DNA of 64,000 bases from an uncultured Gammaproteobacteria bacterium (GTDB lineage: Bacteria > Patescibacteriota > Patescibacteriia > UBA9934): assembly GCA_964599455.1 (NCBI GenBank), contig CAZREA010000001.1, forward strand, positions 7,687-71,686, in the 5' to 3' direction. Shown in pieces: positions 3,101-55,824 of the stretch. The translations under genes and the position numbers were made by a program. The notes below the pieces were generated by a model. The model did no database searches. It was not told the DNA's origin and worked only from the letters and a program-made list of their open reading frames with translations. The first letter of the stretch is position 1. Each line of letters opens with the position of its first letter.

Positions 3101-3322
3101 AGACACAGGTTTACACAGATTAAAAGTAATGCAGACAGATGCAAGATGAGCGCCTGTCTATATCGAGGATAACAAGGACTTCGAAACGAAAAGAGCGATA
3201 ACGGAGATGTTCGGATAAACAGACGCTTTGTGCGTCTGTTTGGTTTATACTAATGGAGAAGAGCGAAAGGTAAGTCTTGTAATCTGTCTGTACCTTCTCG
3301 ATCTGTGTAAATCTGTTCCCTT
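3101..3322. repeat. Intergenic structured element bounded by a 16-nt inverted pair ACAGGTTTACACAGAT (3105-3120) / ATCTGTGTAAATCTGT (3301-3316), with an internal 10-bp perfect hairpin (AAACAGACGC-TTTGTG-GCGTCTGTTT, about 3221-3246)
   Basis: Direct sequence comparison; the same 16-mer recurs at 21047 and 55809. Confidence 0.55.
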
Positions 3323-6272: not shown

Positions 6273-6275
6273 AAT

Positions 6276-6812
6276 ATGACTGACGAACCACTACAACCTC
6301 AACAAGACCCACAACCAGAATCACCGACTGCTACTCAACCCGACGAGTTAACGCAGCTCAAAGCCAAATGCGACGAGTATCTTTCCGGCTGGAAACGCGC
6401 GCTCGCTGACTACGAGAATGTCGCTAAGCAGCAAGCGCAAATGCGCGATGAAGATCGTCGTCGTGTGCGTGCGAATCTCGCCGAAGACTTGCTTGGTGTG
6501 GTCGACAACTTTGGATATGTCACCAAACACATTCCTGATGTCTCTGGCTGCAGCGAAGAATTCCAAAAGAAATTCACCTCTTGGATCTCCGGCATCCAGC
6601 ACATCGATCGACAATTCATGGAAGTACTGAAATCACTCGGCGTTGAACCGATTGAGTCTCTCGGAAAACCCTTTGACGCTCGACTCCATGACGCAGCCGG
6701 AGCAAAGAAGGTCGAGGGAACTCAAGAGGGAATAGTGATTGAAGAATTGGTGAGAGGATGGAAGATTGGCGACGTGGTGTTGCGACCGAGTAGGGTGATT
6801 GTGAGTGAGTGA
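6276..6812 (+). CDS. grpE: Nucleotide exchange factor GrpE
   Basis: Conserved GrpE core (ENxxKRxxRE-like, long helix then beta-domain); position between hrcA and dnaK. Confidence 0.9.
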   Translation: MTDEPLQPQQDPQPESPTATQPDELTQLKAKCDEYLSGWKRALADYENVAKQQAQMRDEDRRRVRANLAEDLLGVVDNFGYVTKHIPDVSGCSEEFQKKFTSWISGIQHIDRQFMEVLKSLGVEPIESLGKPFDARLHDAAGAKKVEGTQEGIVIEELVRGWKIGDVVLRPSRVIVSE

Positions 6813-7148
6813 TCGATTTATTTTATGGTAGAAAGAAAAAAGAAAATTGATTTTTTCATCGGAGCTTTTGTCATGATATTGATAATTCTCAATCACAACA
6901 CCTTTGATTTTAGCAAACAGGTTGGTACTCGTGAGGTCGATTGTGAAGATCCTTGTCTTCGTCTTTCTACAGAGGAGAGATCGGATGGAACTCGATATTA
7001 TGAACAACCGATTTATGACTTCAGTATCATTCCCCGCATTACCTTTGATCGCTTAAGAGCTGAGAGATTTTTCTGGGACATCATTATTATCAGCTTTGCC
7101 TTCTTGATACGTTATCTCTTTCATTCAAGTGAAAATAAAAATAAATAA

Positions 7149-9098
<1,950 letters not shown>

Positions 9099-10160: not shown

Positions 10161-10493
10161 ATGATTACGTATCAAGATTTTGAAAAAGTAGATATTCGTG
10201 TTGGAATGATTATTGCCGTTGATGATTTTCCTGAGGCTCGAAAACCAGCGTATAAATTGACGATTGATTTTGGAAGTGAAATTGGCATTAAAAAGTCCTC
10301 TGCTCAAATTACCGAATATTATCAAAAAGAAGAACTTATAGGTCGGCAAATTATTGCTGTTGTAAATTTTGCTCCCAAGCAAATTGGCAAATTTATTTCT
10401 GAGGTGTTGACGCTCGGTCTTCCGGATGCAGCAGATGGAGCTGTGCTTCTTTCGCCAACTCTTCAAGTGCCGAACGGTGGCAAGTTATTCTAA
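10161..10493 (+). CDS. tRNA-binding domain protein (CsaA/Trbp111/MetRS C-terminal Myf-type OB fold)
   Basis: F-KVDIRVG-I pattern with conserved spacing, as in CsaA and EMAP-II-like tRNA-binding domains. Confidence 0.75.
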   Translation: MITYQDFEKVDIRVGMIIAVDDFPEARKPAYKLTIDFGSEIGIKKSSAQITEYYQKEELIGRQIIAVVNFAPKQIGKFISEVLTLGLPDAADGAVLLSPTLQVPNGGKLF

Positions 10494-10500
10494 ACTTCCT

Positions 10501-10872
10501 ATGCACCTCGACTACGCTCTCTTATCCGAATTTGCCTCACTTTCCGTAAATGGTTTGCATAGCTTCATGCACGTGTTCGATAAAACAGCATTTAAGGAAA
10601 ATACTTCATTGATGTTACGTGGATTTTTAGCCGTAAAATGCTCGGAATTAGAAGGGGAGAACGCGTGCGAGATCTACATGACCGACAAGAATAATGTTAT
10701 TCTCGATAAAGGCCATATCATGAAAGGGAAGATTAAAGGACCGGCCGTGCAAATTGTCCTCAAGATCGCGGTTCCGATTCCTGCTCCGGGTACATATTCG
10801 TTGTGGATTCGAGTTGAAAATGGTGAACCGAAGCGGTTGCTGATGTGGAGCGCAGAAGTGAAGGCGGGCTAG
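10501..10872 (+). CDS. Hypothetical protein (likely beta-rich)
   Basis: ORF track; internal ATG at 10501 chosen because the upstream part overlaps the csaA-like gene. Confidence 0.4.
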   Translation: MHLDYALLSEFASLSVNGLHSFMHVFDKTAFKENTSLMLRGFLAVKCSELEGENACEIYMTDKNNVILDKGHIMKGKIKGPAVQIVLKIAVPIPAPGTYSLWIRVENGEPKRLLMWSAEVKAG

Positions 10873-10894
10873 TGGCCTTTTACTCCAACTCTCT

Positions 10895-11098
10895 ATGCCC
10901 ACTCTTTCTTCAAAATTCCAAAAACTCAAAAAACACTTTGCCCTCATTGCAAAGATTTTTTCGTTCGTGATTCTCCCGATCGCGCGATGGGGTTGGAAAA
11001 AATATCAGGCCAAAGGACGGCCGATCGTAAAAGAGCAAAAGCACGAGGTGATTGATGTTACCGGAACTGAAGTGAAAGATGAGGTTTCTTCGCGATAA
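10895..11098 (+). CDS. Small hypothetical protein with one hydrophobic helix
   Basis: ORF track only. Confidence 0.25.
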   Translation: MPTLSSKFQKLKKHFALIAKIFSFVILPIARWGWKKYQAKGRPIVKEQKHEVIDVTGTEVKDEVSSR

Positions 11099-11101
11099 TG
11101 T

Positions 11102-12145
11102 ATGTCCAAAGACTATTACAAAATTCTCGGTGTTGAAAAAAATGCTTCGCAAGATGATGTGAAGCGTGCGTTTCGCAAATTGGCACATGAACATCATCCG
11201 GATAAAGGGGGAGATGCGGAGAAGTTTAAGGAATTTAATGAGGCGTACCAAGTGCTGGGTGATACCGAAAAGCGTCAACGATACGATCAATTTGGCAGTG
11301 CCGATGGTCCGCAGGGGTTTGGTGGTGGCCAAGGATTCCCGAATGGATTTGATCCGTCGATGTTTGGTGATTTAGGCGATATCTTCGGCGACATGTTTGG
11401 TATGGGTGGTGGACGACGTCAACGCCAGTCTCAAGGAGAAGATTTGATGACCGAGATGACGATCTCTTTTAAAGAAGCGGTTTTTGGTATTGCAAAAGAA
11501 GTACCTATTACCAAATCACTACACTGTGCGCGTTGTGGCGGTGTGGGTGCGGAGCCTGGCACGAAGATGAAAACGTGCGACTCCTGTAAAGGAAAGGGCG
11601 TGACTATGCATGTGCAGCGAACGATTCTTGGTTCGATGCAAATGCGTGTTCCGTGTGCAGACTGTAATGGACGAGGTGAAAAACCTGAAAAGATTTGTAC
11701 CGAATGTCGTGGAGAAGGCATCGTTCGTGCACGAAAAACACTCAAGGTAAATATTCCTCCCGGAGTTGAAGACGGGGTGCAATTGCGGTTGCGTCATGAA
11801 GGTGAGGCGGTACAAGGAGGTGCGGCAGGAGATTTGTATATTTTGTTACATGTGACGCCTGATGCTCGTTTTCGTCGTGAAGGAACGACGGTTTACTCGA
11901 CAAAAGAGATCGGTTTTACGCAAGCAGCATTGGGCGATACGGTGACGGTTGACGTTGTTGACGGTAAAGTTGAAATGCAGATTCCCCAAGGAACGCAAAG
12001 CGGTGATGAATTGCGTTTGAAAGGAAAGGGTGTGCCTCATGCACGTGGTCGAGGTGATCACATTGTGGTGGTGAAAGTAAAAACGCCGACGAAGCTTGGT
12101 CGAAAAGAAGCTGATCTCATGAAAGAGCTGAACCATCGTTTATAA
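11102..12145 (+). CDS. dnaJ: Chaperone DnaJ (J domain, G/F region, four CxxCxGxG zinc repeats, C-terminal domains)
   Basis: HPD motif in YYKILGV J domain; CARCGGVG, CDSCKGKG, CADCNGRG, CTECRGEG repeats. Confidence 0.95.
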   Translation: MSKDYYKILGVEKNASQDDVKRAFRKLAHEHHPDKGGDAEKFKEFNEAYQVLGDTEKRQRYDQFGSADGPQGFGGGQGFPNGFDPSMFGDLGDIFGDMFGMGGGRRQRQSQGEDLMTEMTISFKEAVFGIAKEVPITKSLHCARCGGVGAEPGTKMKTCDSCKGKGVTMHVQRTILGSMQMRVPCADCNGRGEKPEKICTECRGEGIVRARKTLKVNIPPGVEDGVQLRLRHEGEAVQGGAAGDLYILLHVTPDARFRREGTTVYSTKEIGFTQAALGDTVTVDVVDGKVEMQIPQGTQSGDELRLKGKGVPHARGRGDHIVVVKVKTPTKLGRKEADLMKELNHRL

Positions 12146-12150
12146 CCATT

Positions 12151-13179
12151 ATGGATAAGAAATCCGCGCTTCCTTTGGTGATGATTGCGACAGGCATTCT
12201 GAGTGCTTTTGGTGTCGCTGCATATGTACGGCGCGATATGGTGCAAGATAAGGACAGTGTGGATGCATCGCAACCGTTGTACATGACCACCATGACGCAC
12301 ATGGAAAGTGCGTATAAAGATGATGTAGACGAAGAGCTTTTTCGTCGCCATGCGGCTGATATTCGTCGTACCGCTGAGCTGTTTGATGATTATGGAGCGA
12401 AGCTAGATATAGAATCTGAGCAGCCCTTTGCTCGAGCAAACACGATTTGGAATGACAATGTCCTTGCTTGGCTCGTGGAGCACGGCCATGGTGTGGGCAC
12501 GCATGCAGATTTTGGTGCTACAGGCATGAAGAATGAGGCTATTGCCATCGCTGCCTTTAAAGAAAATAAACAACTTGTTGATGACTTGGTTGGTGCTGAA
12601 CATAATCAAGGTGTGTCCGGTGGTTTGGGTCCATACGATTGGGTACAGGCGGCGCATGATGCGGGATTTGCCTATAGCAACGGCATTGTCGGGTTTGGCT
12701 ATCTGGCCATGCCCGAATCGGCGCGTCCTGATGGTTGGACCGATGAATATATTCGCCAAAATACCTATCACGATCCAGCGCCGGTGAGTCTTGAGGATCG
12801 TATTCACCCGCTCTTTTTGGCAAATGCTGATGATTTTGTGGAAGATGAAGGAGCGACATTTGTTGCCTTGACCGGTGAGTTTGGCGAACTTGCCAGCTTG
12901 GCGGAAGGACGAAGTAATTGCTTTCCTCGCTGTGAGTTCAATGAAGATGACATCGAGGCCTTTGTAAAAATGCTCGACGAAGCCATTTTGCTGCATAAAA
13001 ACCATTCCGATCGCGTCGGTCATATCAACGTACACATTCCCATGCAACTTTTCACGCAAAAGAATGCAGCAATGCTCGAAAAGTTTCTTATCGCGGTTCA
13101 GGAATATGTTGATCGAGGTGATATTGTATGGGGAACGCAGCAGGAGGTGTATGAAGCGGTAATGGAAGCGAGAAATTGA
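12151..13179 (+). CDS. Hypothetical N-terminally membrane-anchored protein; possible carbohydrate-esterase/hydrolase-like fold
   Basis: ORF track; N-terminal TM helix; conserved His/Asp-rich stretches, but no family motif I can name with confidence. Confidence 0.45.
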   Translation: MDKKSALPLVMIATGILSAFGVAAYVRRDMVQDKDSVDASQPLYMTTMTHMESAYKDDVDEELFRRHAADIRRTAELFDDYGAKLDIESEQPFARANTIWNDNVLAWLVEHGHGVGTHADFGATGMKNEAIAIAAFKENKQLVDDLVGAEHNQGVSGGLGPYDWVQAAHDAGFAYSNGIVGFGYLAMPESARPDGWTDEYIRQNTYHDPAPVSLEDRIHPLFLANADDFVEDEGATFVALTGEFGELASLAEGRSNCFPRCEFNEDDIEAFVKMLDEAILLHKNHSDRVGHINVHIPMQLFTQKNAAMLEKFLIAVQEYVDRGDIVWGTQQEVYEAVMEARN

Positions 13180-13227
13180 TTTGTTGTTATGAAGTAAGTT
13201 ACTGTTGTTCACGAAGTGTTAAGAATC

Positions 13228-13310
13228 AGACAGACCCTGACGCCAGGAAGGGTCTAGCAAATGACTGTGACAAAGGAATGTTTTAGGCCCCTCCTGGCGT
13301 CGGGGTCTGT
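13228..13310. repeat. Palindromic MITE/REP-like element, family GACGCCAGGAGGGGCCTAG. Near-perfect 27-bp inverted arms (CAGACCCTGACGCCAGGAAGGGTCTAG / TAGGCCCCTCCTGGCGTCGGGGTCTG) separated by about 25 bp.
   Basis: Direct sequence comparison with copies at 22259-22480, 34423-34496, 38471-38507 and 52183-52258. Confidence 0.7.
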
Positions 13311-13324
13311 TCTTCTTCGTTCAT

Positions 13325-14704
13325 ATGCCTCTCTCCCTCTACAACACCCTCACTCGTTCTCAAGATACGTTTCATCCGATGAAACCTGGTCATGTTGGGC
13401 TTTATTCCTGTGGGCCAACAGTTTATTTTCGACCAACGATTGGTAACTATCGTTCGTTTTTATTTGCGGATACATTGCGACGCGTGTTGGAGGCGAATAA
13501 TTTTTCCGTAACACATGTCATGAATATTACCGATGTAGGGCATTTGGTCGGTGATGGTGATGATGGTGTTGATAAAGTACAAATGTCGGCAGAAAAAACC
13601 GGAAAAACTGCTTGGGATATTGCCGCTGAATACACAAAGATTTTTTTAGACGACATTCGCGCACTCAATATTGAAATGCCCCATGTCATGCCGAAGGCTA
13701 CGGATCACATTGCAGAACAAATCTCCATGATTCAAACAATGGAGGAGAAGGGTTTCACGTACCGCACGTCTGATGGAATATATTTTGACACTGCAAAACT
13801 GCCAACGTATGGCAGACTTTCTGGACAGAAGAGTGAAGAAAAAGAAGAAGGTGCACGTGTTGCGATCAATCCAGAGAAGCGAAATTCAAGTGACTTTGCA
13901 TTATGGAAATTTTCACCAGAAGATGCAAAACGTCATATGGAATGGGATTCTCCATGGGGAAAAGGTTTTCCTGGTTGGCATATTGAGTGTTCTGCGATGT
14001 CTGAAAAATATCTTGGCGTACCGTTCGATATTCACACCGGTGGTATCGACCACATTGCGGTACATCACGAAAACGAAATTGCGCAGACGATGGCGGCACG
14101 TGGTGTTTTGGAAGCAAATGTTTGGATGCATAATGAGTTCTTACTTATCGACGGCGGCCGCATGGGTAAGTCGCTTGGTAACGCATATACACTAGATGAC
14201 CTCACTGCAAAAGGTATCGAATTAATCGCATATCGACTATTCGTTCTCGGAGCACATTATCGATCGCAATTAAATTTCACCTGGGAGTCAGCACAGGCAG
14301 CACAAAATGCGTACGAAAAACTTTGTGATACGGTGCGCGAATGGGATCAGCCTTCCGTTATCGATCAGAAGTCTCTTGAGCGATTCATGGAGCGTGTGAA
14401 TGATGATTTGGATACTCCTGGAGCACTGGCGGTGATGTGGAATCTGGTGAAGGATGAATCCTTATCGACTGCTGTTCGCGCCGCAACACTTTTAGCAATG
14501 GATAAGATTTTCGGACTTGGTCTTGAGCAGATAATTGCAACGCCGATCATGATTCCTGATGAGCTCCAAAAGCTTCTTGATGAACGTGCGCAAGCTCGTC
14601 AAAACAAAAATTGGAGCGAATCGGATCGTCTTCGCGATGACATTGCTGCTTTAGGTTACGAAGTAAAAGACACGGCCGATGGCCAACGTGTGCGACGTGT
14701 TTAA
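13325..14704 (+). CDS. cysS: Cysteine--tRNA ligase
   Basis: Class I HIGH-type motif in CGPTVY context and KMSKS-type RMGKSLGN; N-terminal LYNTLTR typical of CysS. Confidence 0.95.
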   Translation: MPLSLYNTLTRSQDTFHPMKPGHVGLYSCGPTVYFRPTIGNYRSFLFADTLRRVLEANNFSVTHVMNITDVGHLVGDGDDGVDKVQMSAEKTGKTAWDIAAEYTKIFLDDIRALNIEMPHVMPKATDHIAEQISMIQTMEEKGFTYRTSDGIYFDTAKLPTYGRLSGQKSEEKEEGARVAINPEKRNSSDFALWKFSPEDAKRHMEWDSPWGKGFPGWHIECSAMSEKYLGVPFDIHTGGIDHIAVHHENEIAQTMAARGVLEANVWMHNEFLLIDGGRMGKSLGNAYTLDDLTAKGIELIAYRLFVLGAHYRSQLNFTWESAQAAQNAYEKLCDTVREWDQPSVIDQKSLERFMERVNDDLDTPGALAVMWNLVKDESLSTAVRAATLLAMDKIFGLGLEQIIATPIMIPDELQKLLDERAQARQNKNWSESDRLRDDIAALGYEVKDTADGQRVRRV

Positions 14705-16449
14705 GAGCGATGTTTTTCTTCGAGACGTTTGTGTTGTTCTGTGAAGAATCCTTTTTCTTTTCCGGTTTGTAGACCTGCGTCAAGCATGGCGTCTATTTTA
14801 TAGTCAATTCCTTGTTGTAGTGATGTTCTCCAAGCATGCAGGGGTCCATCTTCATCTTTTTCTAATGCCACAATTTTTTTTGCAGCCAGATCAAGCTCGA
14901 TTGCTTTGTCCCAAAGAGTTTCCATTTCTGAGGTGGATCGCATGCCAGTGTCTGGATCAGGGAGACCATCTTTTAAATCGGTAACGATATAGGTATTATC
15001 AAGATTTTTTATACTTGATCCCACAACGAGCGTTTGATTGCCAAATTCTACATAGGTTTGCGCGAATACATGGAGTGCTTCAACGGCTGCTTTTTGTGTT
15101 GGACGTGAAGCGTCTGCAAGGTCAAGCGCTCTGATGACACCCAGGGCAACGACAGATGTATCATCGAGATACCCCTCATAAATCGCTTCCCGTTCTTCAT
15201 GATAGCTATCGGGCAAGGTATCAAAATCATGATGAATGAGTTGAGCAAAGCTACCAGCAATAGTGAGCGTGGGTTGTACAAGTACGCCACCGCGTAATGC
15301 TTGACCATATAGCTTCAATTCTTCTTCAGAGTAACCGCTCACTGCCGCAAGAATGCTTCTTCCTTCTTTGTGTAAACCATATTGATTACCATACAATGCC
15401 TGACATCGGAATACATCAACAACCGTTTCCTGCACACCTTCTTCAGTTGCCATAGCCTTGCCACAATCTTCCATCATGCTTTGCAGCGGTCCGTTTCTTT
15501 CCGCTAATTCTTTGGTGAAGGCACGATCAATTTCCAAAAGCGCCTCAGCTCGCGTTTCTTGATGTCCATCAGCAAAAGTGAGAATGTCATTTTCAGAAGG
15601 GAGTTCAAAGGTAAAGCCCATTTCTTTGCCCCCAGACTCGAGCGGGGATATCTTGCTGACTTCATGGATGATTTCCGCCGTTCTCTCATTTCGTTCCGCA
15701 CGTCGTTCAACGCTCTGTGATGCAAGGAGAGGAATACCGATAAACGCGCTCGCCAATAATAAAGGCTTTGCCAACGGTGAAGATGTTATGCGATCTAAAA
15801 GTGAACGCCAAGATGAAGAGGATTTTGCTTTTTCAATTACCGTAGGCGACAAGGTATCTTTTTCTTGCTCTTCTGATCTTCCAATGATCTCTTTCGGAGG
15901 ATTATCTAACAGTAAGGGTTCTTGTAAGATATGAACAAATGTTTCTTGCGAAGGAAGAGGGGGAATTTCTTTTGCAGACGGATCTTCGGTAGTCGCTTCA
16001 TGTGATATCTCTTGTTCTGAAAATATCTCAGATTGCCCGGTTGCTTCCTGACGTTCATGCTGACCTTGAAGTTCTATGAGTTGTTTGCGTAACCGATCAC
16101 GGCTTGTTTTACGCCCGATGTCGAGAGCGACAATGAGATGACGTAAAGATCCGAGTTCTTTTTTCATCGTCGTGGCTTTTTGTTTGGCTTCTTGCCACTG
16201 TGTTTCGGTTTGATTGGCGACTGCACGAGCTTGAGATTCTGTGTGAAAGGTTTTTGTATCAGCTCCGGGTCGCACGATATTTCTCACTTCCCGATTGGCT
16301 TTGGTAAAGGCGTTAAAAGCAGCATCTGTTTCATCAAGGATATCGATATAACGAAGCATACGTTCCTGTTCTGCGATCGACCAGGACGTGGGATTGGGAT
16401 CCTTTTCTTGTACTGCTCGTTCAAGACCAGATGGCAGCAGAAATTCCAT
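14701..16449 (-). CDS. Hypothetical large protein with a central TM helix (coiled-coil N-terminal part, globular C-terminal part)
   Basis: ORF track; convergent with cysS. Confidence 0.45.
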   Translation of the reverse strand: MEFLLPSGLERAVQEKDPNPTSWSIAEQERMLRYIDILDETDAAFNAFTKANREVRNIVRPGADTKTFHTESQARAVANQTETQWQEAKQKATTMKKELGSLRHLIVALDIGRKTSRDRLRKQLIELQGQHERQEATGQSEIFSEQEISHEATTEDPSAKEIPPLPSQETFVHILQEPLLLDNPPKEIIGRSEEQEKDTLSPTVIEKAKSSSSWRSLLDRITSSPLAKPLLLASAFIGIPLLASQSVERRAERNERTAEIIHEVSKISPLESGGKEMGFTFELPSENDILTFADGHQETRAEALLEIDRAFTKELAERNGPLQSMMEDCGKAMATEEGVQETVVDVFRCQALYGNQYGLHKEGRSILAAVSGYSEEELKLYGQALRGGVLVQPTLTIAGSFAQLIHHDFDTLPDSYHEEREAIYEGYLDDTSVVALGVIRALDLADASRPTQKAAVEALHVFAQTYVEFGNQTLVVGSSIKNLDNTYIVTDLKDGLPDPDTGMRSTSEMETLWDKAIELDLAAKKIVALEKDEDGPLHAWRTSLQQGIDYKIDAMLDAGLQTGKEKGFFTEQHKRLEEKHRS

Positions 16450-16616
16450 ATAGTCGTATTTTATCGCACTTCAGCGATTTCTTACGGAAGTCTTGCACAG
16501 GGTCTTGGATATTTTTGGCTAAAAATAAATAAAAAATCCCTGATTCTTCAATCGGGGATTTTTTAAGCACTCGAGTTAATAATAGCAGAAAAATGGGCTT
16601 TTGTCCATGTTTTTGC

Positions 16617-17480
16617 TCACAGCCATGACAAATTGAGCGTTTCTTTCCAATTGCCGCCTGTACTGCGCAAAAGCTGCGGATAGTCGAAGAACTGGGTGCC
16701 AAATTGGGATTTAAAGCGGGAAAAGCCTTGCCAACTTTCAGGCTCTCCCGGCGTCCAAAACAAGCCAAAATCCAAAAAGTGGATACCGACTTGCTGAGCG
16801 CGTACAAACCACCAGGCCATCAAACCAGTGCCCGCATCTACTTCTCGACCAGTGGGTGTACAGCACGAGACATGATGCAGTGAGGCTGATGTTTCGGGAA
16901 TATCAATGCAGGCAAAGGCCGCTTCGTACACCTCGCTCTCTTTTGGGCGCGCACCAACAATATGCACGAGTTCGCCGTGACCAACCATCTTTTCGGCCAA
17001 CATACCACAGAAGGCTTTTTTATGATCAGGTCGTAAGGTCGATCGACCTGAGACCTCGTAATACTGATGCAGCGTAATTGGTTCAATAATCCACCCCTGC
17101 TTTAACCAGTTTTTGTAATGACGAATAGCATGGGTTTGCCAATGTTGGGTGATATCTCCTTCGGGAACAATCGCAACACCGGTTCGGCTTTGATGAATAG
17201 CAAGTTTTGACAAAGTCCAGCCTGGCGGGATGTCTTGTCGGGTCAATCGCTGCCAGAAGATCATGCGCTTCATGCCCTCGGGTAAGGGCTTCGGTTCCTC
17301 GTCGCTGACATATCGACCAAAACCGCATGGTCCATAATTCCAGGTTACGCCTGCACAGGTAGGCGTGCCCACTAGTCGAAAATTCTTGCCTCGCCCTCGG
17401 GCATCGCGCTCTAAAAAAGCGGGATGACCGAGATGTTGTTGGTAACCATTCATGTTATTTTTTTTCTTCGGTTGTGGCAA
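16617..17480 (-). CDS. Possible FemAB-family / GNAT-fold aminoacyltransferase-like protein
   Basis: C-terminal GFSRFKSQFG motif resembles the conserved FemAB/MprF-C (G..FK..FG) signature; weak. Confidence 0.35.
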   Translation of the reverse strand: MPQPKKKNNMNGYQQHLGHPAFLERDARGRGKNFRLVGTPTCAGVTWNYGPCGFGRYVSDEEPKPLPEGMKRMIFWQRLTRQDIPPGWTLSKLAIHQSRTGVAIVPEGDITQHWQTHAIRHYKNWLKQGWIIEPITLHQYYEVSGRSTLRPDHKKAFCGMLAEKMVGHGELVHIVGARPKESEVYEAAFACIDIPETSASLHHVSCCTPTGREVDAGTGLMAWWFVRAQQVGIHFLDFGLFWTPGEPESWQGFSRFKSQFGTQFFDYPQLLRSTGGNWKETLNLSWL

Positions 17481-17910
17481 CGCTAAATCCCCGATTTACA
17501 CAGCCCGAAGCCATGAAAAGAGCGCTACCTGCGAGTGCGGCATCTTTCAAAAGTCCCATAAGCGACATTTGACCGCCACCGGCCAAGAGTCCAGGAAGAT
17601 GAATGATGAGTACAAACAGTCCAAGTTCAACGGCTAACAATGTTGCTGCCAATTTTGCGTATCGATTGATAACAATGGCGATGGCGCTCAAAATCAATCC
17701 TGCTCCTGAGAGATACACAAAGAAGAGCGGTGCGGGCCAACCGGCGAGCATACCCGTCATCATTTGGCCGTTGATAAAATGAAAGATACCAAAAATAAAG
17801 AGGGGAGTAGCAAACAGCCATCGTCCAGCCATTTGCAATTGCCCGTCACGACCTGCGCTGGGACCACAACCACACGAACCTTTCTCTGCACAGCATGAGC
17901 CATTCATCAT
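17455..17910 (-). CDS. DoxX-like small integral membrane protein (start uncertain; could be 17832)
   Basis: Four hydrophobic helices, length and topology like the DoxX/SURF4 family; the upstream Cys-rich stretch may be non-coding. Confidence 0.4.
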   Translation of the reverse strand: MMNGSCCAEKGSCGCGPSAGRDGQLQMAGRWLFATPLFIFGIFHFINGQMMTGMLAGWPAPLFFVYLSGAGLILSAIAIVINRYAKLAATLLAVELGLFVLIIHLPGLLAGGGQMSLMGLLKDAALAGSALFMASGCVNRGFSVATTEEKK

Positions 17911-17964
17911 AAAAAAGATGTTAAAATATACCTGGTTAATACGATAGCATGCTATACTTTTTCT

Positions 17965-18441
17965 ATGCCAGATGCCCGTGTGAATCCTGTGCGTGTCGAG
18001 CAACCCCCTCTTCCCGAGCAAGGAGAGGCTGTTTTAGAAAAATCTGATGAATCTTTAGAGCATGTATCAACCCGGAGCAAAAAAAAGAAGCCCCGTGCAA
18101 GCGATATTTCTCAACAAATTGCCGTTGCGCAATCCATCGCCCCTTCTGTTGTTGATAAGAAAGATGAAACATTGCAACGCATTGAGGAGATTTTAGCCGA
18201 AGACCTTGCTCCAACCTTCAAAACGCTTTCTGTGGAACAGCGAAAAAAGTTTAAGGAAGAAGGTGAGCGAGTAGCGCTTTTTATTCGTGATAGTGTGCGG
18301 CAGGGAAAACTTCATGCGGCGCAGGTTCTTCAACGCATTCAACGATGGTTTTTGTTGATCGTCGATAAAGCACGCAGCTATTGGTGGCTGACGCAAGAGG
18401 CCTATAAAAAATCACGCAAAATCATGGTGACGTTCTCCTAA
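17965..18441 (+). CDS. Hypothetical Lys/Glu-rich protein immediately upstream of the P-loop ATPase
   Basis: ORF track; 10-bp gap to the next gene suggests co-transcription. Confidence 0.35.
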   Translation: MPDARVNPVRVEQPPLPEQGEAVLEKSDESLEHVSTRSKKKKPRASDISQQIAVAQSIAPSVVDKKDETLQRIEEILAEDLAPTFKTLSVEQRKKFKEEGERVALFIRDSVRQGKLHAAQVLQRIQRWFLLIVDKARSYWWLTQEAYKKSRKIMVTFS

Positions 18442-18451
18442 CATTTCTTTT

Positions 18452-21040
18452 GTGGCCAAACAAACTTCCTCTTTTGATCCCGCGGCAGTTGCCTACAGCG
18501 AGAGCTTTGCCTATGACCAGGTTTCTCCGCTCATTCCTTTTCTTTTTTTGACGATTATTGTTTTGATAATCGGTTGGACGGCCTTATTTTTTATTCGCAA
18601 GCGTGCAGCCGAGGCCCGACGATTGGGTGGCGGCGATGATGCGCCGGTCACGCTGCGCATCATGTTACCAAAATTTTCAAACGAAGAAGATGCACGTGCG
18701 CGTGAAGTCCAGCAAACAACAAAAGAAAAAATTGGTGTTGCCGAAACACTGTTTGCGGCGTTTGGGGGCTTGAAGCCTGCACACGGACTCAAGCATTGGT
18801 TATTGGCACATGAAGATGTGTTTGCACTTGAACTTGTCGCGCATCAAAAATTGGTTACGTTTTACGCAACGGTTGCAAAAAAACATCAACACTTTTTTGA
18901 ACAACAAGTGCACGCCCAGTGGAGTAGCGCGTATATTGAAGAAGTGGATGATTACAATATCTTTTCTCCCAAGGGCGTGATTGTGGCGGGGTATATTATT
19001 CAAAAACGGGAAAGTGTTTTACCGATTAAAACATATAAGGATTTAGAGGCCGATCCATTAAATGCGCTCACCAATGCGTTGTCGCAAGTTGCTGATGGTG
19101 ATGGCGTGGTGGTGCAGTATATTTTGCGACCAACCCATGGTCATTGGCGTGAACTTGGTCAAAGAATTGTGCGCAACATGCATGCCGGCTTAAGTTTTTC
19201 GCAAGCAAAAAAAGGGAAACCAAGCCGAGGACTTTTAGAATCAAAAGAGGATTTTGACAAACGTGAGGCAAAACTTCGTGAACATAAACTTTCGGCGCTC
19301 GAAAATAAGATGCTTGAAGGCATTGAACAGAAAATTTCCAAAGCGGGTCTTGAAGCCAATATTCGGGTGGTTGCTTCGGCGCAAACTGCCGAGGCCGCAC
19401 AGGCGTATTTGGGGAATGTGTTGCAGGCATTTGGCCAATACAGTATTTACGAATATGGGAATAGTTTTGATAAACATATCCCTTCGTCAAAAAAGGAGAT
19501 TCTCAATAACTTTATTTTCCGTCAATTTAGCAAGAATCATCGCCTTATTTTAAATACCGAAGAGCTTGCGAGCTTGTGGCACCTGCCGCTGCCGACAACC
19601 GAAACACCGAATATTGAGTGGCTGCTCGCCAAAACTGCACCTCCACCAACAAATACGCCGTCAACCGGCCTTCATCTTGGTTTTAATGCCTATCGTGGCA
19701 AGCGAACCGAAGTCTTCATGAAGGAAGCTGATCGTCGTCGGCACATGTACATCATTGGTAAGACCGGTTCGGGTAAATCGGAGTTTATTAAAAATTTGGT
19801 GGCACAAGATATTAAAGAAGGCAAAGGTGTCGGTGTTATTGATCCGCACGGTGATTTGGCTGATGGTATTTTGGAACTTATTCCCAAAGAGCGTGTTGAT
19901 GATGTTGTCTATTTCAATCCATCTGACATGGAATATCCGATGGGGTTGAACATGCTCGAGGTTCCGCTTTCGGAAGAAGATGCCAAGCTTGATCCTGAAG
20001 AGCAACGCAAAATTCTTGCCAATCAACGCGATTTTGCCGTGCAAGAAATGATCAATATTTTCTACATGTTGTTCCCACCGGAAATGATTGGTCCGATGTT
20101 CGAGCACAACATGCGCAACTACATGCTTACGTTGATGGCTGATCCAGAGAATCCTGGTACGATTGTGGAAATTCCGCGCATGATTGCCGATGAAAAATTC
20201 CAAAAGCAATGGGTTTCCAAGGTTACCGATCCGGTGGTCAAATCCTTCTGGGAAGATGAAATGGCCAAAACATCCGACTATCACAAGAGTGAAATGATGG
20301 GCTACTTGGTTTCGAAAGTCGGTCGTTTTGTAGAAAACGAAATGATGCGCAATATCATTGGTCAAACCAAGTCTGCCTTTGATTTCCGTAAAATCATGGA
20401 CGAGAAAAAGATTTTGTTGGTCAATCTTTCCAAGGGTCAAACCGGTGAAGTAAACGCATCGCTCTTAGGTTTGATTATCGTTGCCAAGTTACAGATGGCG
20501 GCTTTCCGTCGTGCCGATATTCCTGAAGAAAAGCGTCAGGACTTCTATCTGTATATCGACGAGTTCCAAAACTTCATCACCCCCTCAATCGCAACGATTC
20601 TTTCTGAGGCACGTAAATATCGTCTCGACCTTATCATGGCTCACCAGTACATGGGTCAGTTGGTCAAAGATGGCAAGAGCGAAATTCGTGATGCCGTGCT
20701 TGGTAACGTGGGTAGTACGTTTGTGGCACGTGTGGGTCCTGAAGATGTGGAAGTGCTCGGTAAAATTTACGAACCCGTGTTTTCGAAATTCGATTTGATG
20801 AACACTGATAAATTTACATGGAACGTCAAGCTGATTATCGACAACGCCCAAGAAAAGCCATTTACCATGAAGGCCTACCCGCCAATCAAGGGAAATGCGC
20901 GTGTGGCCGAACTCTTAAAAGACATTTCGCGTTTGCAATACGGTCGTCCACGTGAAGAGGTTGAGAAAGATATCCTTGAACGCGCTGGTTTGAATAAGAA
21001 AAAGGAGATCGCCATGCCCGCACCTCCGCCGGTGTTTTAA
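18452..21040 (+). CDS. Membrane-anchored P-loop NTPase of the VirD4/TraG/TraD coupling-protein or HerA/DUF87-like class (862 aa)
   Basis: N-terminal TM helix; Walker A IIGKTGSGKSEF followed by IDPHGDLADGI; Walker B YIDEFQNF; EARKYRLDLIMAHQ arginine-finger/Q motif typical of the FtsK-HerA-VirD4 superfamily. Confidence 0.7.
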   Translation: MAKQTSSFDPAAVAYSESFAYDQVSPLIPFLFLTIIVLIIGWTALFFIRKRAAEARRLGGGDDAPVTLRIMLPKFSNEEDARAREVQQTTKEKIGVAETLFAAFGGLKPAHGLKHWLLAHEDVFALELVAHQKLVTFYATVAKKHQHFFEQQVHAQWSSAYIEEVDDYNIFSPKGVIVAGYIIQKRESVLPIKTYKDLEADPLNALTNALSQVADGDGVVVQYILRPTHGHWRELGQRIVRNMHAGLSFSQAKKGKPSRGLLESKEDFDKREAKLREHKLSALENKMLEGIEQKISKAGLEANIRVVASAQTAEAAQAYLGNVLQAFGQYSIYEYGNSFDKHIPSSKKEILNNFIFRQFSKNHRLILNTEELASLWHLPLPTTETPNIEWLLAKTAPPPTNTPSTGLHLGFNAYRGKRTEVFMKEADRRRHMYIIGKTGSGKSEFIKNLVAQDIKEGKGVGVIDPHGDLADGILELIPKERVDDVVYFNPSDMEYPMGLNMLEVPLSEEDAKLDPEEQRKILANQRDFAVQEMINIFYMLFPPEMIGPMFEHNMRNYMLTLMADPENPGTIVEIPRMIADEKFQKQWVSKVTDPVVKSFWEDEMAKTSDYHKSEMMGYLVSKVGRFVENEMMRNIIGQTKSAFDFRKIMDEKKILLVNLSKGQTGEVNASLLGLIIVAKLQMAAFRRADIPEEKRQDFYLYIDEFQNFITPSIATILSEARKYRLDLIMAHQYMGQLVKDGKSEIRDAVLGNVGSTFVARVGPEDVEVLGKIYEPVFSKFDLMNTDKFTWNVKLIIDNAQEKPFTMKAYPPIKGNARVAELLKDISRLQYGRPREEVEKDILERAGLNKKKEIAMPAPPPVF

Positions 21041-21046
21041 GGAAAT

Positions 21047-21168
21047 ACAGATTTACACAGATCGAAAAGATTAAGACAGATGACATACTGTGGAAGAGGG
21101 CCTGTAAAGCAAGATGTTTCTCTGCTACCTTTTGATCCGTCGTATTTTATTGATTTGTGTAAATCTGT
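21047..21168. repeat. Intergenic element bounded by ACAGATTTACACAGAT (21047-21062) and its inverse ATTTGTGTAAATCTGT (21153-21168). Fills the whole gap between the ATPase stop and the dnaX start.
   Basis: Direct sequence comparison with the 3105/3301 pair and the 55809 copy. Confidence 0.55.
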
Positions 21169-21173
21169 GTCCT

Positions 21174-22841
21174 ATGTCCTCCGACGTCCTTTTCCGCAAA
21201 TACCGACCCCAGCAATTCTCCGATGTTGCCGAACAGGAGCATGTCGTACGCACGATCCAAAATCAATTAGCGCAAGACATGATTGCGCAAGTGTATTTGT
21301 TTTCTGGACCGCGCGGAGTAGGAAAGACGACGATCGCGCGGTTGCTGGCAAAAGCATTGAATTGCGAAGGGCGACAAAAAGGACAGAGTGAGCCTTGTGG
21401 GACATGTGCATCGTGTACGGATTTTGCGTTTGGGCGAATGATGGATGTGATTGAAATTGATGCGGCATCGCAGACCGGCGTTGATGCAGTGCGAGAAAAC
21501 ATTATTGAAGGTGTTCGCTTTAGCCCGACACGCGGTAAATACAAGATTTTCATCATTGATGAAGTGCACATGCTGTCGACGGCATCCTTTAATGCACTTT
21601 TAAAAACGCTCGAAGAACCGCCAAAGCATGCGATTTTTATTTTAGCTACCACAGAACTGCATAAAATCCCTGCGACCGTTATTTCTCGCTGTCAGCGTTT
21701 TGTGTTTAAGCATATTCCGGCAGCGGCCATGATTGAGCGTTTAAAAACGTTGGCGATACGTGAAAAAAGGGAAGTTGATGATCACGTGCTTGCACAAATT
21801 GCTCGTTTGTCTGAGGGTTGTTTGCGTGATGCGGAGAGTTTGCTCGGGCAAGTGTTTGCGATTACTGATGAGCGGGTGACCCTCGGCAATGCATCATTGG
21901 TTTTGCCGGTCACGCATGCAACGGCGGTTGCCGACATGGTTACGCATCTTGCAAGCGGCGATGTTTCCACTGCGATCAACGTGTTGAATACGACGGTTGC
22001 CAGCGGTGCATCGGTGAAGCATTTGCATGATGAACTTTTAGAATATGCACGAGCCGTTTTGCTACAAACATTAGGGGGACTTGATCACGAGCGTTTTGAT
22101 GGCGAGTCGTTGGAGCGAATCAAGACAACGGCAACGCAGTTGCAATTGGCCGGAGCAACACGATTACTTGATGAGCTCTTGTCAGCTCGTGGTCGCAGTA
22201 CGCCATCTTTGTTTCCGCAAGTCGCATTAGAGATTGCGTTTGTGAAGGCTAGTGTCATCCCGACGCCAGGAGGGATCTCGAACTCGGCGAATATTTCTCT
22301 TCAGCAACGAACAGACTCCGACGCCAGGAGGAGCCTAGAAAATCCTCTTAAGAAACAAGAAAATCAACCAGGAGAAATAGATATTCCTCAGCAAAATTCT
22401 CAACCATTCCAAGAACCTCCGAAGGAATCTGCTAGATCCTTCCAGCCTGCCCTGAGTGAACGCGAAGGGTCAGGGTCTGATGCTCCTACCCCTTCGTCCC
22501 CTTCTGAATCCTCCACACCCCTCTCTTCCTCTGACCTTCGCGACAAATGGGGTCGCTGTTTGGAAAAAGCCAAGGCATCTGCAGGTCCGGGTTTTGGACT
22601 GGTGCTCGGCGTGGCCGAGTTTGTTGAAGTACAGGATGGCCGTGTGGTTGTTGTTTCGTTTCCTTACCAAATGCATCTCGATAAAATGAAAGATGCCAAG
22701 AATGCGCGTTTACTGCGTGATGCTATTGCGGAAATTGCCATGATGCCCGACATCGAGCTTTCATGTATTCTTGGCAAAAGAGCCGCTGCTGAAGATGAAG
22801 TAGGAACATTACTGGCTGAGTTTGGCGGGAGTGTGGTGTAA
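21174..22841 (+). CDS. dnaX: DNA polymerase III subunit gamma/tau. Carries an in-frame low-complexity insertion derived from the palindromic repeat family.
   Basis: GPRGVGKTT Walker A, clamp-loader motifs, Zn module CGTCASC; the provided ORF start at 21114 trimmed to the ATG at 21174 (MSSDVLFRKYRP). Confidence 0.9.
   Translation: MSSDVLFRKYRPQQFSDVAEQEHVVRTIQNQLAQDMIAQVYLFSGPRGVGKTTIARLLAKALNCEGRQKGQSEPCGTCASCTDFAFGRMMDVIEIDAASQTGVDAVRENIIEGVRFSPTRGKYKIFIIDEVHMLSTASFNALLKTLEEPPKHAIFILATTELHKIPATVISRCQRFVFKHIPAAAMIERLKTLAIREKREVDDHVLAQIARLSEGCLRDAESLLGQVFAITDERVTLGNASLVLPVTHATAVADMVTHLASGDVSTAINVLNTTVASGASVKHLHDELLEYARAVLLQTLGGLDHERFDGESLERIKTTATQLQLAGATRLLDELLSARGRSTPSLFPQVALEIAFVKASVIPTPGGISNSANISLQQRTDSDARRSLENPLKKQENQPGEIDIPQQNSQPFQEPPKESARSFQPALSEREGSGSDAPTPSSPSESSTPLSSSDLRDKWGRCLEKAKASAGPGFGLVLGVAEFVEVQDGRVVVVSFPYQMHLDKMKDAKNARLLRDAIAEIAMMPDIELSCILGKRAAAEDEVGTLLAEFGGSVV
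22259..22480. repeat. Copy or copies of the GACGCCAGGAGG palindromic element embedded in-frame in the dnaX linker. It is translated as a Pro/Ser/Gln-rich segment including SDARRSLENP.
   Basis: Left cores CCGACGCCAGGAGGGATCT (22261) and CAGACTCCGACGCCAGGAGGAGCCTAGAAAATCCTC (22312), right-arm remnant CTGCTAGATCCTTCC (22428). Confidence 0.65.
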
Positions 22842-23678: not shown

Positions 23679-23762
23679 AAGAAAGAGGGAACGCCTGAGT
23701 GCTTCCTCTTTTTTTGTTTTTCGGGTAGAGTGTTTGGTCCTGAAACAACAAGGAGGAAGGAC

Positions 23763-24392
23763 ATGCGGAAGATCTCGTTAGGAGAATTATCCGAGAAATT
23801 TGCCCTCGAGGCGGACAAATATCATGTAGACTTCGTGAACGGTTACGGCGACCGTGGCGATGATGACGCGGGTTATAACAAAGTCGCCGACATCGTCAGG
23901 AAAGGCGTGGACTGGCGTCGAAAACATCTGCGCCGTCAGACCGTGGTTATTCTGGCGGGTGGAAAAACGAATAATCCCAACCGTTCCGAGGCCGAGAGTT
24001 TGCGTAAGCATTTTGACCGGGTACTGTCCGGTCGAGAAGTGTACGTCGTGTTGCTTGATGGGGTTACCGAGACCCGCACTGCATTCGAGCTTCTGCATAA
24101 CGAGGTAGGCGAGATCAGGCATATGACCGCGTACTTCGAGGCCAGCAACGCGCTGAAAGGCTGGGTGCAGATGATGCGGTTCTATCCGAACGCGCGAAGC
24201 CGGTGGATCAACTTTGATCAGTTGGGACTCTTCCCGCTCATCGGACAACTCATCTTCAAGGGAATCCCTGCCGCCTTGCTGACGTTCGTTGCGCTGTACT
24301 GGGATCGTGCGCGCAAGTTCGAGATCAAGCGTCGTGAGCTGCACATCGCCAAGGCGCGTACGCTCTGGATCAAGCATCAACTGAAGAAGTGA
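23763..24392 (+). CDS. DUF218/YdcF(SanA/ElyC)-like domain protein, paralog A, with C-terminal hydrophobic helix; lies in the GC-rich island
   Basis: VVILAGG...SEAESLRKHF...LLDGVTETRTAFE matches the DUF218 core pattern (GGG...SEA..m...L...G.....E..S..T.eNa); strong SD AAGGAGGAAGG before the ATG. Confidence 0.5.
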   Translation: MRKISLGELSEKFALEADKYHVDFVNGYGDRGDDDAGYNKVADIVRKGVDWRRKHLRRQTVVILAGGKTNNPNRSEAESLRKHFDRVLSGREVYVVLLDGVTETRTAFELLHNEVGEIRHMTAYFEASNALKGWVQMMRFYPNARSRWINFDQLGLFPLIGQLIFKGIPAALLTFVALYWDRARKFEIKRRELHIAKARTLWIKHQLKK

Positions 24393-24728: not shown

Positions 24729-24980
24729 ATGGGTGATGCAGGCAAGTTGGTTATCAATTGTTCGCATGAAGAATATAGGGATGTCGATCGTGCGCTTGGG
24801 CGCGCGAGTCGTGTGGAGTTTACCTACGACTGTTTGCCGTACCCAGGCGAGCGGCGTTTTCGACTCACCATGCGCTGCCTCAAGGCAGCTGGTCGCGTGC
24901 GTGAAGAGGTGGCCGTCGTCTGTATCGAGGCGAGCATCCAGGGCCATGTTTATTGGAGTAATGCGACCTGGAAATTCTAG
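24729..24980 (+). CDS. Small hypothetical protein (83 aa) with Cys pairs; GC-rich island
   Basis: ORF track; SD-like GGGGGA upstream. Confidence 0.4.
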   Translation: MGDAGKLVINCSHEEYRDVDRALGRASRVEFTYDCLPYPGERRFRLTMRCLKAAGRVREEVAVVCIEASIQGHVYWSNATWKF

Positions 24981-25105
24981 TGTGGCCCCGTGCCGTAGCA
25001 GGTCCTTCCCGTGGATCTCCGGTGCGGGGCTTGTTATGTTGCGGAAACTTTTGCTACCGTGTTGCCTTGCCCGGCATCTATTTGTCGAGCAAAAGGAGGA
25101 ACGCA

Positions 25106-25741
25106 ATGAAACTGGTTAACCCTGACTATCTGCTGATTGCCACCTCGACGCAGAAGGTTGTTGTCTACTTCGTCGATGTTACTTGTCAGTGGGTTGTTCG
25201 TTCTCATGACGATCGAGGCTACGGCAATCTCGCCCAAACAGTCTCTCGAGACATTGTCGCCGACATCAGGGTCGATCGCGATCAGCCGCGGGTGCTTGTC
25301 ATCGCTGGGGGAGCGAGGGACCATGGCGGCCTTTCCGAGGCCAGGAGTCTTTTGCAACATTTCGCGTCGCTGCTCGCGAAGGTCGATGTCGATGTCCTTT
25401 TGCTCGAGGATGTCATTGATACCCGAACCGCACTCGAGATGCTCGAGCGTCATGTGGTCAAAAGCGAGATCTTCATTGCTGGCTACTTCGAGATCGGTGA
25501 GGCTTTCAAGGGCACTTGGCATCTTTGGTGGTGCTTCTGGAGCCAGATGCCGACCGTCAGAGCGATCAATTTTGATGACCTCGCAGGAGTTCACTTACGC
25601 AAGGCTAAGATTCGCGGTCTCTTCGCTGCTGGTCTCACCATCCTGGCAACGTTCTCCCGATTCTTTCGTGGTATCGAGCTGCGGAAGTATGGAAAGGGAA
25701 TTGCTGCCGAAGAGGTGAATCAAAAAGCGACCGCTCAGTAA
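25106..25741 (+). CDS. DUF218/YdcF-like domain protein, paralog B of 23763-24392, with C-terminal hydrophobic helix
   Basis: VLVIAGGARDHGGLSEARSLLQHF...LLEDVIDTRTALE parallels paralog A motif for motif; SD AAGGAGGA before the ATG. Confidence 0.5.
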   Translation: MKLVNPDYLLIATSTQKVVVYFVDVTCQWVVRSHDDRGYGNLAQTVSRDIVADIRVDRDQPRVLVIAGGARDHGGLSEARSLLQHFASLLAKVDVDVLLLEDVIDTRTALEMLERHVVKSEIFIAGYFEIGEAFKGTWHLWWCFWSQMPTVRAINFDDLAGVHLRKAKIRGLFAAGLTILATFSRFFRGIELRKYGKGIAAEEVNQKATAQ

Positions 25742-55808: not shown

Positions 55809-55824
55809 ACAGATTTACACAGAT
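55809..55824 (+). repeat. Third copy of the ACAGATTTACACAGAT motif, 5 nt after the rpsI stop (no inverted partner found)
   Basis: Exact 16/16 match to 21047-21062. Confidence 0.5.

Follow-up and report, generated by a model that had tools for sequence, protein, structure and literature searches.

The two adjacent genes at 17965–21040 of a 64-kb stretch of contig CAZREA010000001.1 (the window, meaning the whole stretch of DNA that was analysed) encode a small soluble protein and a membrane-anchored ATPase of the Pfam family DUF8128 (PF26449). The ATPase is a core gene of the candidate phyla radiation (CPR; Patescibacteria) and not a stray conjugation gene or mobile-element debris; its family is pan-CPR, present in essentially all CPR classes, and the window locus is an ordinary member. 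According to structural models its architecture is a transmembrane (TM) helix followed by a VirB4-like N-terminal domain (N-domain) and a motor resembling type IV coupling proteins (T4CPs). The module is read here, with a probability of about 40%, as the missing coupling or energising ATPase of the chromosomal, relaxase-less machine of CPR bacteria that resembles a type IV secretion system (T4SS), encoded apart from the virB4 cluster. An earlier note on this DNA had described an orphan ATPase of the FtsK-HerA-VirD4/TraG clade with a small partner in a reduced genome, possibly the remnant of a conjugative or integrative element. That interpretation was half right: the ATPase class, the partner and the reduced (CPR) genome stood, and the orphan status and the mobile-element origin did not.

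Both open reading frames (ORFs) were found on the forward strand at the positions previously given, a 158-amino acid (aa) ORF with an ATG start (17965–18441) and, after a 10-nt gap, an 862-aa ORF with a GTG start (18452–21040); since no alternative in-frame start precedes the hydrophobic segment described below, the GTG at 18452 is the likely start of the ATPase. The protein is laid out as TM helix, DUF8128 N-domain, T4CP-like motor with an all-alpha insertion, and short C-terminal tail. The P-loop motor (aa 405–810; 19664–20881) carries Walker A IIGKTGSGKSEF (aa 434–445; 19751–19786), an IDPHGD motif (aa 463–468; 19838–19855), Walker B YIDEFQNF (aa 701–708; 20552–20575) and an arginine-finger/sensor-glutamine motif EARKYRLDLIMAHQ (aa 719–732; 20606–20647), all four at the places quoted by the earlier note; the last three align with VDPNGD, FIDELAS and GRKAGLRVVAGLQ of TrwB. 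In a 57-sequence family alignment covering 32–79% identity, the catalytic residues were invariant (G436, K442, D464, D703, E704, E719, K722 and Q732), and R721 was conserved in at least 90% of the sequences. The arginine/glutamine motif held on careful alignment, ARKY...AHQ being paired by hhalign with GRKA...GLQ of TrwB.

The 862-aa protein was compared with family models, with the Pfam T4CP and DUF87 matches confined to its C-terminal half. The best Pfam E-value was that of DUF87 (PF01935; E 2e-9, above cut-off), followed by T4SS-DNA_transf (PF02534; E 7.5e-9, 35.4 bits, cut-off 20.1), TrwB_AAD_bind (PF10412; E 1.7e-8, 34.2 bits, cut-off 20.5) and TraG-D_C (PF12696; E 4e-5, 24.1 bits, cut-off 22). 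FtsK_SpoIIIE (PF01580) stayed below its cut-off (21.0 versus 24 bits) and matched the P-loop region only; the Pfam scan returned no other FtsK domain, no CagE_TrbE_VirB match and no full-length match to an unrelated family. The NCBIfam equivalogs TraD, VirD4-like, VirB4, CedB/D, HerA and EccC were all far under threshold, the best scores being SXT_TraD (48 bits, cut-off 366) and CD1115 VirD4-like (43 bits, cut-off 250), with HerA at 13 bits against cut-offs of 800–970. Searched against PDB sequences, the family profile matched TrwB (5.7e-8), DotL (1.1e-6) and HerA (6.6e-3). Profile comparison by hhalign gave a probability of 97% for TrwB (E 7e-11 over 267 columns, spanning the all-alpha insertion) and 12% for the VirB4 protein TrwK (E 2.5e-3), both references being taken from an R388-like Oligella plasmid. 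Because of the Pfam, PDB-profile and TrwB-versus-VirB4 hhalign results, the motor is assigned by sequence comparison to the coupling-protein (VirD4/TrwB) lineage of the FtsK-HerA superfamily, in agreement with the clade originally proposed.

AlphaFold2 (AF2) and hhalign also placed a predicted all-alpha insertion in the nucleotide-binding domain (aa ~508–650; 19973–20401) at the position of the T4CP all-alpha domain; the helices of aa 508–650 fall between strands 485–488 and 654–658 of the model. The full model matched TrwB in Foldseek with a TM-score by target length (TMt) of about 0.6.

The N-terminal TM helix named by the earlier note was recovered as a hydrophobic segment at aa 26–48 (18527–18595; hydropathy KD19 maximum 2.75 at aa 30; AF2 helix 27–59), a TM-type segment being present in 76 of 79 family members and exactly one in 68 of them. 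As this segment precedes the basic flank RKRAAEARR on its C-terminal side, a single N-out/C-in TM helix with the remainder of the protein cytoplasmic is predicted. That note had missed that the first ~400 aa hold, besides the anchor, a 340-aa folded domain, namely the alpha/beta DUF8128 domain (aa 60–400; 18629–19651), defined by Pfam, AF2 and Foldseek; the PF26449 assignment is the precomputed annotation of the exact window protein. PF26449 followed by the P-loop motor, with full-length matching, places the protein in the DUF8128 family, and it scored 407 bits with the N-domain profile and 672 bits with the motor profile; these two profiles found no second paralogue in the window. The N-domain closes in a conserved linker, LNTEELASLWHLP...TPNI, and E127, H377 and P379 are invariant. 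Mean pLDDT and pTM were 90.7 and 0.80 for the full-length AF2 model built from the family alignment, and 93.1 and 0.91 for the N-domain modelled alone.

When the N-domain model was searched against the PDB with Foldseek, ranks 1–11 were all TrwK/VirB4 (E 1e-5 to 8e-5, probability 1.0, TM-score by query length (TMq) 0.42–0.46), and the next match followed at E 7e-3, a 100-fold gap; among solved structures, the VirB4 N-terminal domain was thus the only fold match of the modelled 340-aa domain. With the full model, VirB4/TrwK came first (E 5e-14, about 900 aligned columns), and TrwB, Cag-beta, DotL and HerA aligned over the ~450-residue motor only. At the sequence level the N-domain showed no link to VirB4, its profile matching only spurious designed repeat proteins in the PDB and hhalign against TrwK giving nothing. 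In type IV secretion systems, VirB4 is attached to the inner-membrane platform through its N-terminal domain, and VirB3-VirB4 fusions exist in which a TM segment is fused ahead of VirB4. The structural matches over both domains, the fold of the N-domain and the TM helix in front, which recalls such fusions, would suit a divergent VirB4-type assembly ATPase powering pilus or envelope assembly instead of substrate coupling. This is distinctly improbable: the motor sequence lies nearer to T4CPs than to VirB4 (97% versus 12%), the Pfam VirB4 model did not match, and no pilin, VirB3, VirB6 or VirB8 gene was seen among the neighbours. Moreover, CPR bacteria already have a true VirB4 of their own, which is monophyletic and reported in 2,417 of 3,035 genomes (PMC12102498).

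The small upstream ORF proved to be a genuine partner. In jackhmmer searches its homologues were found directly upstream and on the same strand in 31 loci, spaced from a 4-nt overlap to a ~200-nt gap, which are most of the relatives with at least ~42% ATPase identity and available upstream sequence; the 4-nt overlap seen in several loci suggests translational coupling of the two genes. The earlier description as Lys/Glu-rich stands as far as composition goes (33% K+E+R+D overall), although a better picture is one of two parts: the N-terminal half is disordered, and the C-terminal ~90 aa, which contain a Q-R-W-F motif, are conserved, basic and helical. Over this second part the protein is 26–33% identical to the copies in the related loci L002 and L003. 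It has no TM segment, is predicted to be soluble, and was not matched by any model of Pfam, NCBIfam, PADLOC or PHROG.

CPR classes further removed have different small soluble ORFs at this upstream position, one family with a DPYILDxFHD motif and others with a RWLAEWC motif. Homology between the window partner family (c1) and these ORFs was rejected, as profile-profile comparison with families c5, c22, c37, c79 and c96 gave hhalign probabilities below 1%. A short [RK]x0-1W[LFIM] motif near the C-terminus was enriched in upstream ORFs (21/59 versus 26/479, p = 3e-10), also when only non-c1 upstream ORFs were counted (8/35, p = 1e-3). Family c5 matched DUF3801 weakly and below threshold (E 0.017). 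The partner is thus conserved immediately upstream across one CPR subclade, being clade-specific in sequence and recurrent in position.

The terms 'orphan' and 'lone' were not borne out. A first homology search returned 2,686 matches, the 120 listed being full-length or nearly so at 58–80% identity, and the listed matches that have a source name are labelled Patescibacteria, Uhrbacteria or Parcubacteria. An exhaustive search of 50%-identity representatives gave 21,866 matches, with 5,399 clusters at E < 1e-30 and many representatives matching over the full length at 36–54% identity; full-length identity to hundreds of DUF8128-family members thus ranged from 36 to 80%. One genome per GTDB species was scanned and at least 600 species-representative genomes held a relative, from which 80 loci were kept. 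These cover Uhr-, Magasanik-, Doudna-, Buchanan-, Falkow-, Komeili-, Staskawicz-, Berkel-, Curtiss-, Woese-, Levy-, Davies-, Roizman-, Peri-, Moran- and Saccharibacteria and Paceibacterota. The gene itself is not new: the family is already catalogued in Pfam as DUF8128 and is counted among 'T4CP homologues', of which a survey of CPR genomes lists 5,713 VirD4-like proteins in 2,918 of 3,035 genomes, only 148 of them near virB4, with exaptation for other functions left open (PMC12102498). A literature search for 'DUF8128' found no paper in the library that was searchable.

A bootstrapped neighbour-joining (NJ) tree of 79 full-length members follows the CPR classes, grouping the window protein with those of L003 and L002 (100%), a Microgenomatia-like group (100%) and the latter with Saccharibacteria (87%), and the ATPase is read as inherited vertically by almost all CPR bacteria. 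A few genomes carry two DUF8128 ATPases close together (L051, at 5995–8367 and 10226–13447, and L074); the extra copies form their own deep clade with 100% bootstrap, which indicates an old duplication as judged from the tree. Some members (P0137, P0142–P0146, P0151–P0153 and P0163) are lengthened at the C-terminus, reaching as much as 2,006 aa overall, by extensions in which no Pfam domain and no hint of function was found; in Saccharibacteria (L073:5986–9069) the extension is a ~160–200-aa low-complexity tail rich in Pro, Ala and Gln.

Gene order around the ATPase is conserved as well. The arrangement cysS, small ORF, ATPase, zero to two small genes, dnaX recurs in relatives at about 45–66% ATPase identity, and L003 also has the upstream hrcA-grpE-dnaK-dnaJ block. 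In 23 related loci (L004–L035, e.g. L005 at ~8.5–9.1 kb) a ~200-aa protein family (c3) without a Pfam match lies between the ATPase and dnaX, sometimes accompanied by a small methyltransferase (c14); both are absent from the window.

The sole mobile-element signature seen in the window is a 529-aa large serine recombinase (601–2190; Resolvase, Recombinase and Zn ribbon domains in Pfam), the 3' end of which overlaps a minus-strand tRNA-Glu(CTC), the two together spanning 601–2231. This recombinase adjoining a tRNA gene, together with weak PADLOC matches to mad8 (8.8e-13) and HerA (about 1e-5, spanning about 40 P-loop residues), is what could be cited for a decayed conjugative or integrative element, as the earlier note had suggested, or for a HerA-type anti-phage defence ATPase. 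The recombinase lies about 16 kb from the ATPase, behind genes for an MscS-like protein, a Na+/H+ exchanger, hrcA, grpE, dnaK, dnaJ and cysS, and Pfam searches of the other large ORFs of the window identified only genes of housekeeping or envelope type: dnaX, dus, an RNase J-like gene, nth, a trmA-like gene, murJ, a MacB-type ABC system, alaS and glycosyltransferases. In line with the earlier note, no VirB4, VirB6, relaxase, pilin or nuclease gene was found among these large ORFs, and the recurrent neighbours within ±6–10 kb in the related loci examined included no T4SS gene. Only 11 of 2.9 million viral contigs in IMG/VR carried a relative, mostly motor-only and at 28–41% identity, and the relatives in GenBank phages are distant (~23% identity); on these grounds a phage or mobile origin was rejected. 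The ATPase is not a mobile-element relic, because its synteny is conserved, its tree tracks the CPR classes, it is rare in viral contigs and neither a T4SS gene nor a relaxase gene was found in the window. The ATPase gene is intact, with invariant catalytic residues and many homologues, it has no nuclease, sirtuin or methylase partner, and its probable orthologue is essential (see below). The defence reading was rejected since the PADLOC matches are limited to the motor. Together, remnant and defence origins are effectively refuted.

The essentiality data come from transposon sequencing (Tn-seq) of Southlakia epibionticum ML1, the one genetically tractable CPR species (Wang et al. 2023). Two of its proteins, SEML1_0142 and SEML1_0293, have a ~380–400-aa region ahead of a T4CP-like P-loop domain. 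SEML1_0142 (1019 aa) was scored ES/ES/ES, which puts it in class I, among the 61 genes already essential at T0; SEML1_0141 (139 aa), 12 bp upstream, was scored GD/ES/ES with zero insertions recovered; and SEML1_0293 (921 aa) was scored NE/NE/NE (PMC10633639). Over residues 30–844, the window protein has 41% identity to the DUF8128 ATPase of the Saccharibacteria locus L073, with which it also shares its full-length architecture; close relatives of the L073 protein carry the annotation 'ATP-binding protein' and PF26449. The gene order of L073, YifB(-, 501 aa) ... 129+, 146+, ATPase 1027+, 194-, 578-, GyrB+, matches SEML1_0138–0145 by order, strand and size (seven-gene synteny), and because of this match the DUF8128 lineage is equated with SEML1_0142/0141, both of them essential. 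That the window gene itself is an ortholog of SEML1_0142 is only probable, since a second DUF8128 copy, deeply separated in the tree, is present in some genomes. The CPR survey remarks that a t4cp homologue is non-essential (PMC12102498), which fits the other paralogue, SEML1_0293. SEML1_0142 is discussed neither in the Tn-seq paper (PMC10633639) nor in the 2025 CPR T4SS survey (PMC12102498), and the cross-reference of the DUF8128 family to this gene appears not to have been made in the literature consulted.

In the T4SS-coupling reading, the ATPase would be anchored by its one N-terminal TM helix, with the rest of the protein in the cytoplasm, and by analogy with TrwB/VirD4, DotL and Cag-beta would most likely form a ring-shaped hexameric NTP-driven translocase feeding a macromolecular substrate to a membrane channel. 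Its modelled VirB4-like N-domain may dock onto a membrane platform or onto VirB4 itself, and the small soluble protein might bind the ATPase as an adaptor or regulator, as CagZ does for Cag-beta. The membrane-anchored ring translocase is supported by what is known of T4CPs (the TrwB hexamer, DotL and Cag-beta) and by the conserved catalytic residues; its link to the T4SS is one that we infer. This link is favoured by the essential S. epibionticum T4SS cluster, which has no recognisable coupling protein or relaxase (PMC10633639), and by the rarity with which CPR T4CPs adjoin virB4.

Several points weigh against T4SS coupling. The 64-kb window and the recurrent neighbours of the related loci examined lack T4SS genes, and the genes nearby serve replication, division or housekeeping instead, with dnaX, gyrB, a Xer-type recombinase, DivIC and ribonucleotide reductase (RNR) as consistent members. 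T4CP-like proteins occur in 96% of the surveyed CPR genomes (2,918/3,035) and VirB4 in 80% (2,417), so that many genomes seemingly have the ATPase without a T4SS (PMC12102498), counts that are blurred by the incompleteness of metagenome-assembled genomes and by paralogue pooling. Essentiality differs in class as well: SEML1_0142 falls with information-processing genes in class I, but the genes of the T4SS cluster fall in class II (PMC10633639), a hint that the ATPase may be needed sooner or in another way. The same architecture is found in Bacillus phages without a T4SS, and the case for orthology between the window gene and SEML1_0142 draws on architecture, tree and Saccharibacteria synteny rather than on the SEML1 sequences.

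All of these points except the last count in favour of an essential housekeeping translocase that works independently of the T4SS, has no more than its ancestry in the T4CP/VirB4 lineage and moves the cell's own or imported nucleic acid, be it in a replication-, segregation- or division-linked role or in host nucleic acid uptake by a nucleotide-auxotrophic cell; host RNA and nucleotides have been reported to sustain CPR bacteria. Against it, the obvious roles of this kind are already filled in S. epibionticum, which has its own essential FtsK and can do without comEC-dependent DNA uptake; in genomes of ~0.5–1 Mb, chance alone would bring housekeeping genes next to the ATPase; no nuclease, channel or DNA-binding partner lies nearby; and the motor is specifically T4CP-like and not FtsK-like. 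A housekeeping translocase is the main rival reading, and we regard it as somewhat less probable than T4SS coupling. Replacement of FtsK by the ATPase was rejected, given the separate canonical essential FtsK of S. epibionticum (PMC10633639).

A broader proposal, which we consider rather unlikely, is that the module represents an ancient third line of the VirB4/VirD4 motor family, with a VirB4-type N-domain and a T4CP-type motor, and has become an indispensable, universal CPR machine, either the T4SS coupling motor or an autonomous motor moving host-derived macromolecules such as nucleic acid; if true, it would give direct molecular access to the way in which these obligate epibionts draw food from their hosts. 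CPR bacteria account for much of bacterial diversity, are attached to host cells and lack most biosynthesis, and their type IV-like system is essential in the one tractable species, yet without a recognised coupling protein or relaxase. The DUF8128 ATPase is a concrete candidate for this missing motor of CPR host interaction, or else a new essential membrane translocase, and the window gene deserves annotation as a core CPR gene.

The surroundings of the pair hold further features. The ORF-list start of dnaX (21114) adds 20 hydrophobic codons that cross the right arm of an inverted repeat; the true start is probably the ATG at 21175 (MSSDVLFRKYRPQ...), where the homologue alignments begin. The 16-mer ACAGATTTACACAGAT, noted earlier as beginning 7 nt after the ATPase stop, starts at 21047, the 7th nt past the stop. 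Five copies with at most 2 mismatches are present in the window, versus 0.04 expected: 3105–3120 (+), 3301–3316 (-), 21047–21062 (+), 21153–21168 (-) and 55809–55824 (+). Two inverted pairs of the 16-mer flank whole intergenic regions, and the segment from the ATPase stop to dnaX (21041–21174) is predicted to fold as one long hairpin (-44.7 kcal/mol, z = -5.2) with inverted-repeat arms reaching about 20 nt. From its sequence the element looks like an intergenic palindrome of the miniature inverted-repeat transposable element (MITE) or repetitive extragenic palindrome (REP) type, not belonging to the ATPase gene.

Between cysS and the small partner, 14701–18021 on the minus strand holds three ORFs of 582, 287 and 188 aa; the first two have no significant family match, and the third is weakly DoxX-like and overlaps the start of the small ORF by 57 nt. 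Since cysS directly precedes the small partner in several relatives, these ORFs look like a lineage-specific insertion into the conserved synteny. Two same-strand ORFs at 23730–24392 (220 aa) and 24980–25741 (253 aa) are apparently mutual paralogues with the common pattern ...AGG...SEA.SL..HF...LL.....TRTA.E.L... and no Pfam match; they sit in the sole GC-rich stretch of the window (0.52 versus about 0.45).

The system was compared with its nearest characterised counterparts. T4CPs (VirD4/TrwB/TraD/TraG, DotL and Cag-beta) are its best sequence-profile relatives and have in common with it a P-loop motor with Walker A, IDPxGD, Walker B and arginine/glutamine motifs, an N-terminal membrane anchor and, according to the AF2 model, the all-alpha insertion in the same position. 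A small gene directly upstream is also found in trwA-trwB and cagZ-cag-beta, and PDB 8dol (CagZ/Cag-beta) was among the Foldseek matches of the full model. T4CPs differ in that they usually have two TM helices joined directly to the motor, whereas the ATPase has one and carries the 340-aa folded domain in between; unlike them, it scores far below the NCBIfam TraD threshold, is chromosomal, vertically inherited and probably essential, and has no relaxase, mating-pair-formation or other T4SS gene nearby, either among the scanned ORFs of the window or among the recurrent neighbours of related loci. VirB4 (TrwK of R388; PDB 7o42, 7o43 and 8rtd) likewise combines an N-terminal alpha/beta domain with a C-terminal motor, but sequence similarity is nil in the N-domain and marginal in the motor, which is nearer to TrwB; moreover, VirB4 is not TM-anchored unless fused to VirB3, and CPR have a separate true VirB4. 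FtsK/SpoIIIE and HerA belong to the same superfamily, DUF87 being the central domain of HerA. The ATPase has no four-TM N-domain and no alpha or gamma domain, in contrast to FtsK, and in contrast to HerA it has no HAS barrel, no full HerA model match and no NurA, Sir2 or DUF4297 neighbour.

Among less studied relatives, the SEML1_0141/0142 pair resembles the window pair in having a small same-strand ORF upstream of a ~1000-aa ATPase with a P-loop starting near residue 380. It differs in the ~160-aa low-complexity C-terminal extension of SEML1_0142, in a partner of a different sequence family (c96-type versus c1) and in its neighbours (yifB and gyrB versus cysS and dnaX). The Bacillus phage proteins (phage G gp156, JL 'Msb' and Slash) have a DUF8128-like N-domain (TMq 0.64, E about 1e-16; for gp156, found with Foldseek in BFVD, E 4e-17), a motor 23–24% identical to that of the ATPase and a full-length PHROG match (phrog_5156, E 7.5e-78), but they are encoded by phages and their sequences are far removed from that of the ATPase. 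'Type B' relatives (P0174, P0227, P0235, P0237, P0239, P0249 and P0250), a sister group, have a near-identical motor (46–53% identity, 550–820 bits to the motor profile), not separable from the DUF8128 type in a motor-only NJ tree, and the common linker EELAxxFHxP...TP, but their ~400-aa N-region is unrelated and has no TM helix; many are rich in Ala and Arg, a high-GC-type composition that probably points to non-CPR hosts. Set against the characterised systems, the combination of a T4CP-like motor, a modelled VirB4-like N-domain and a small partner is a distinct variant, chromosomal, universal in CPR and probably essential.

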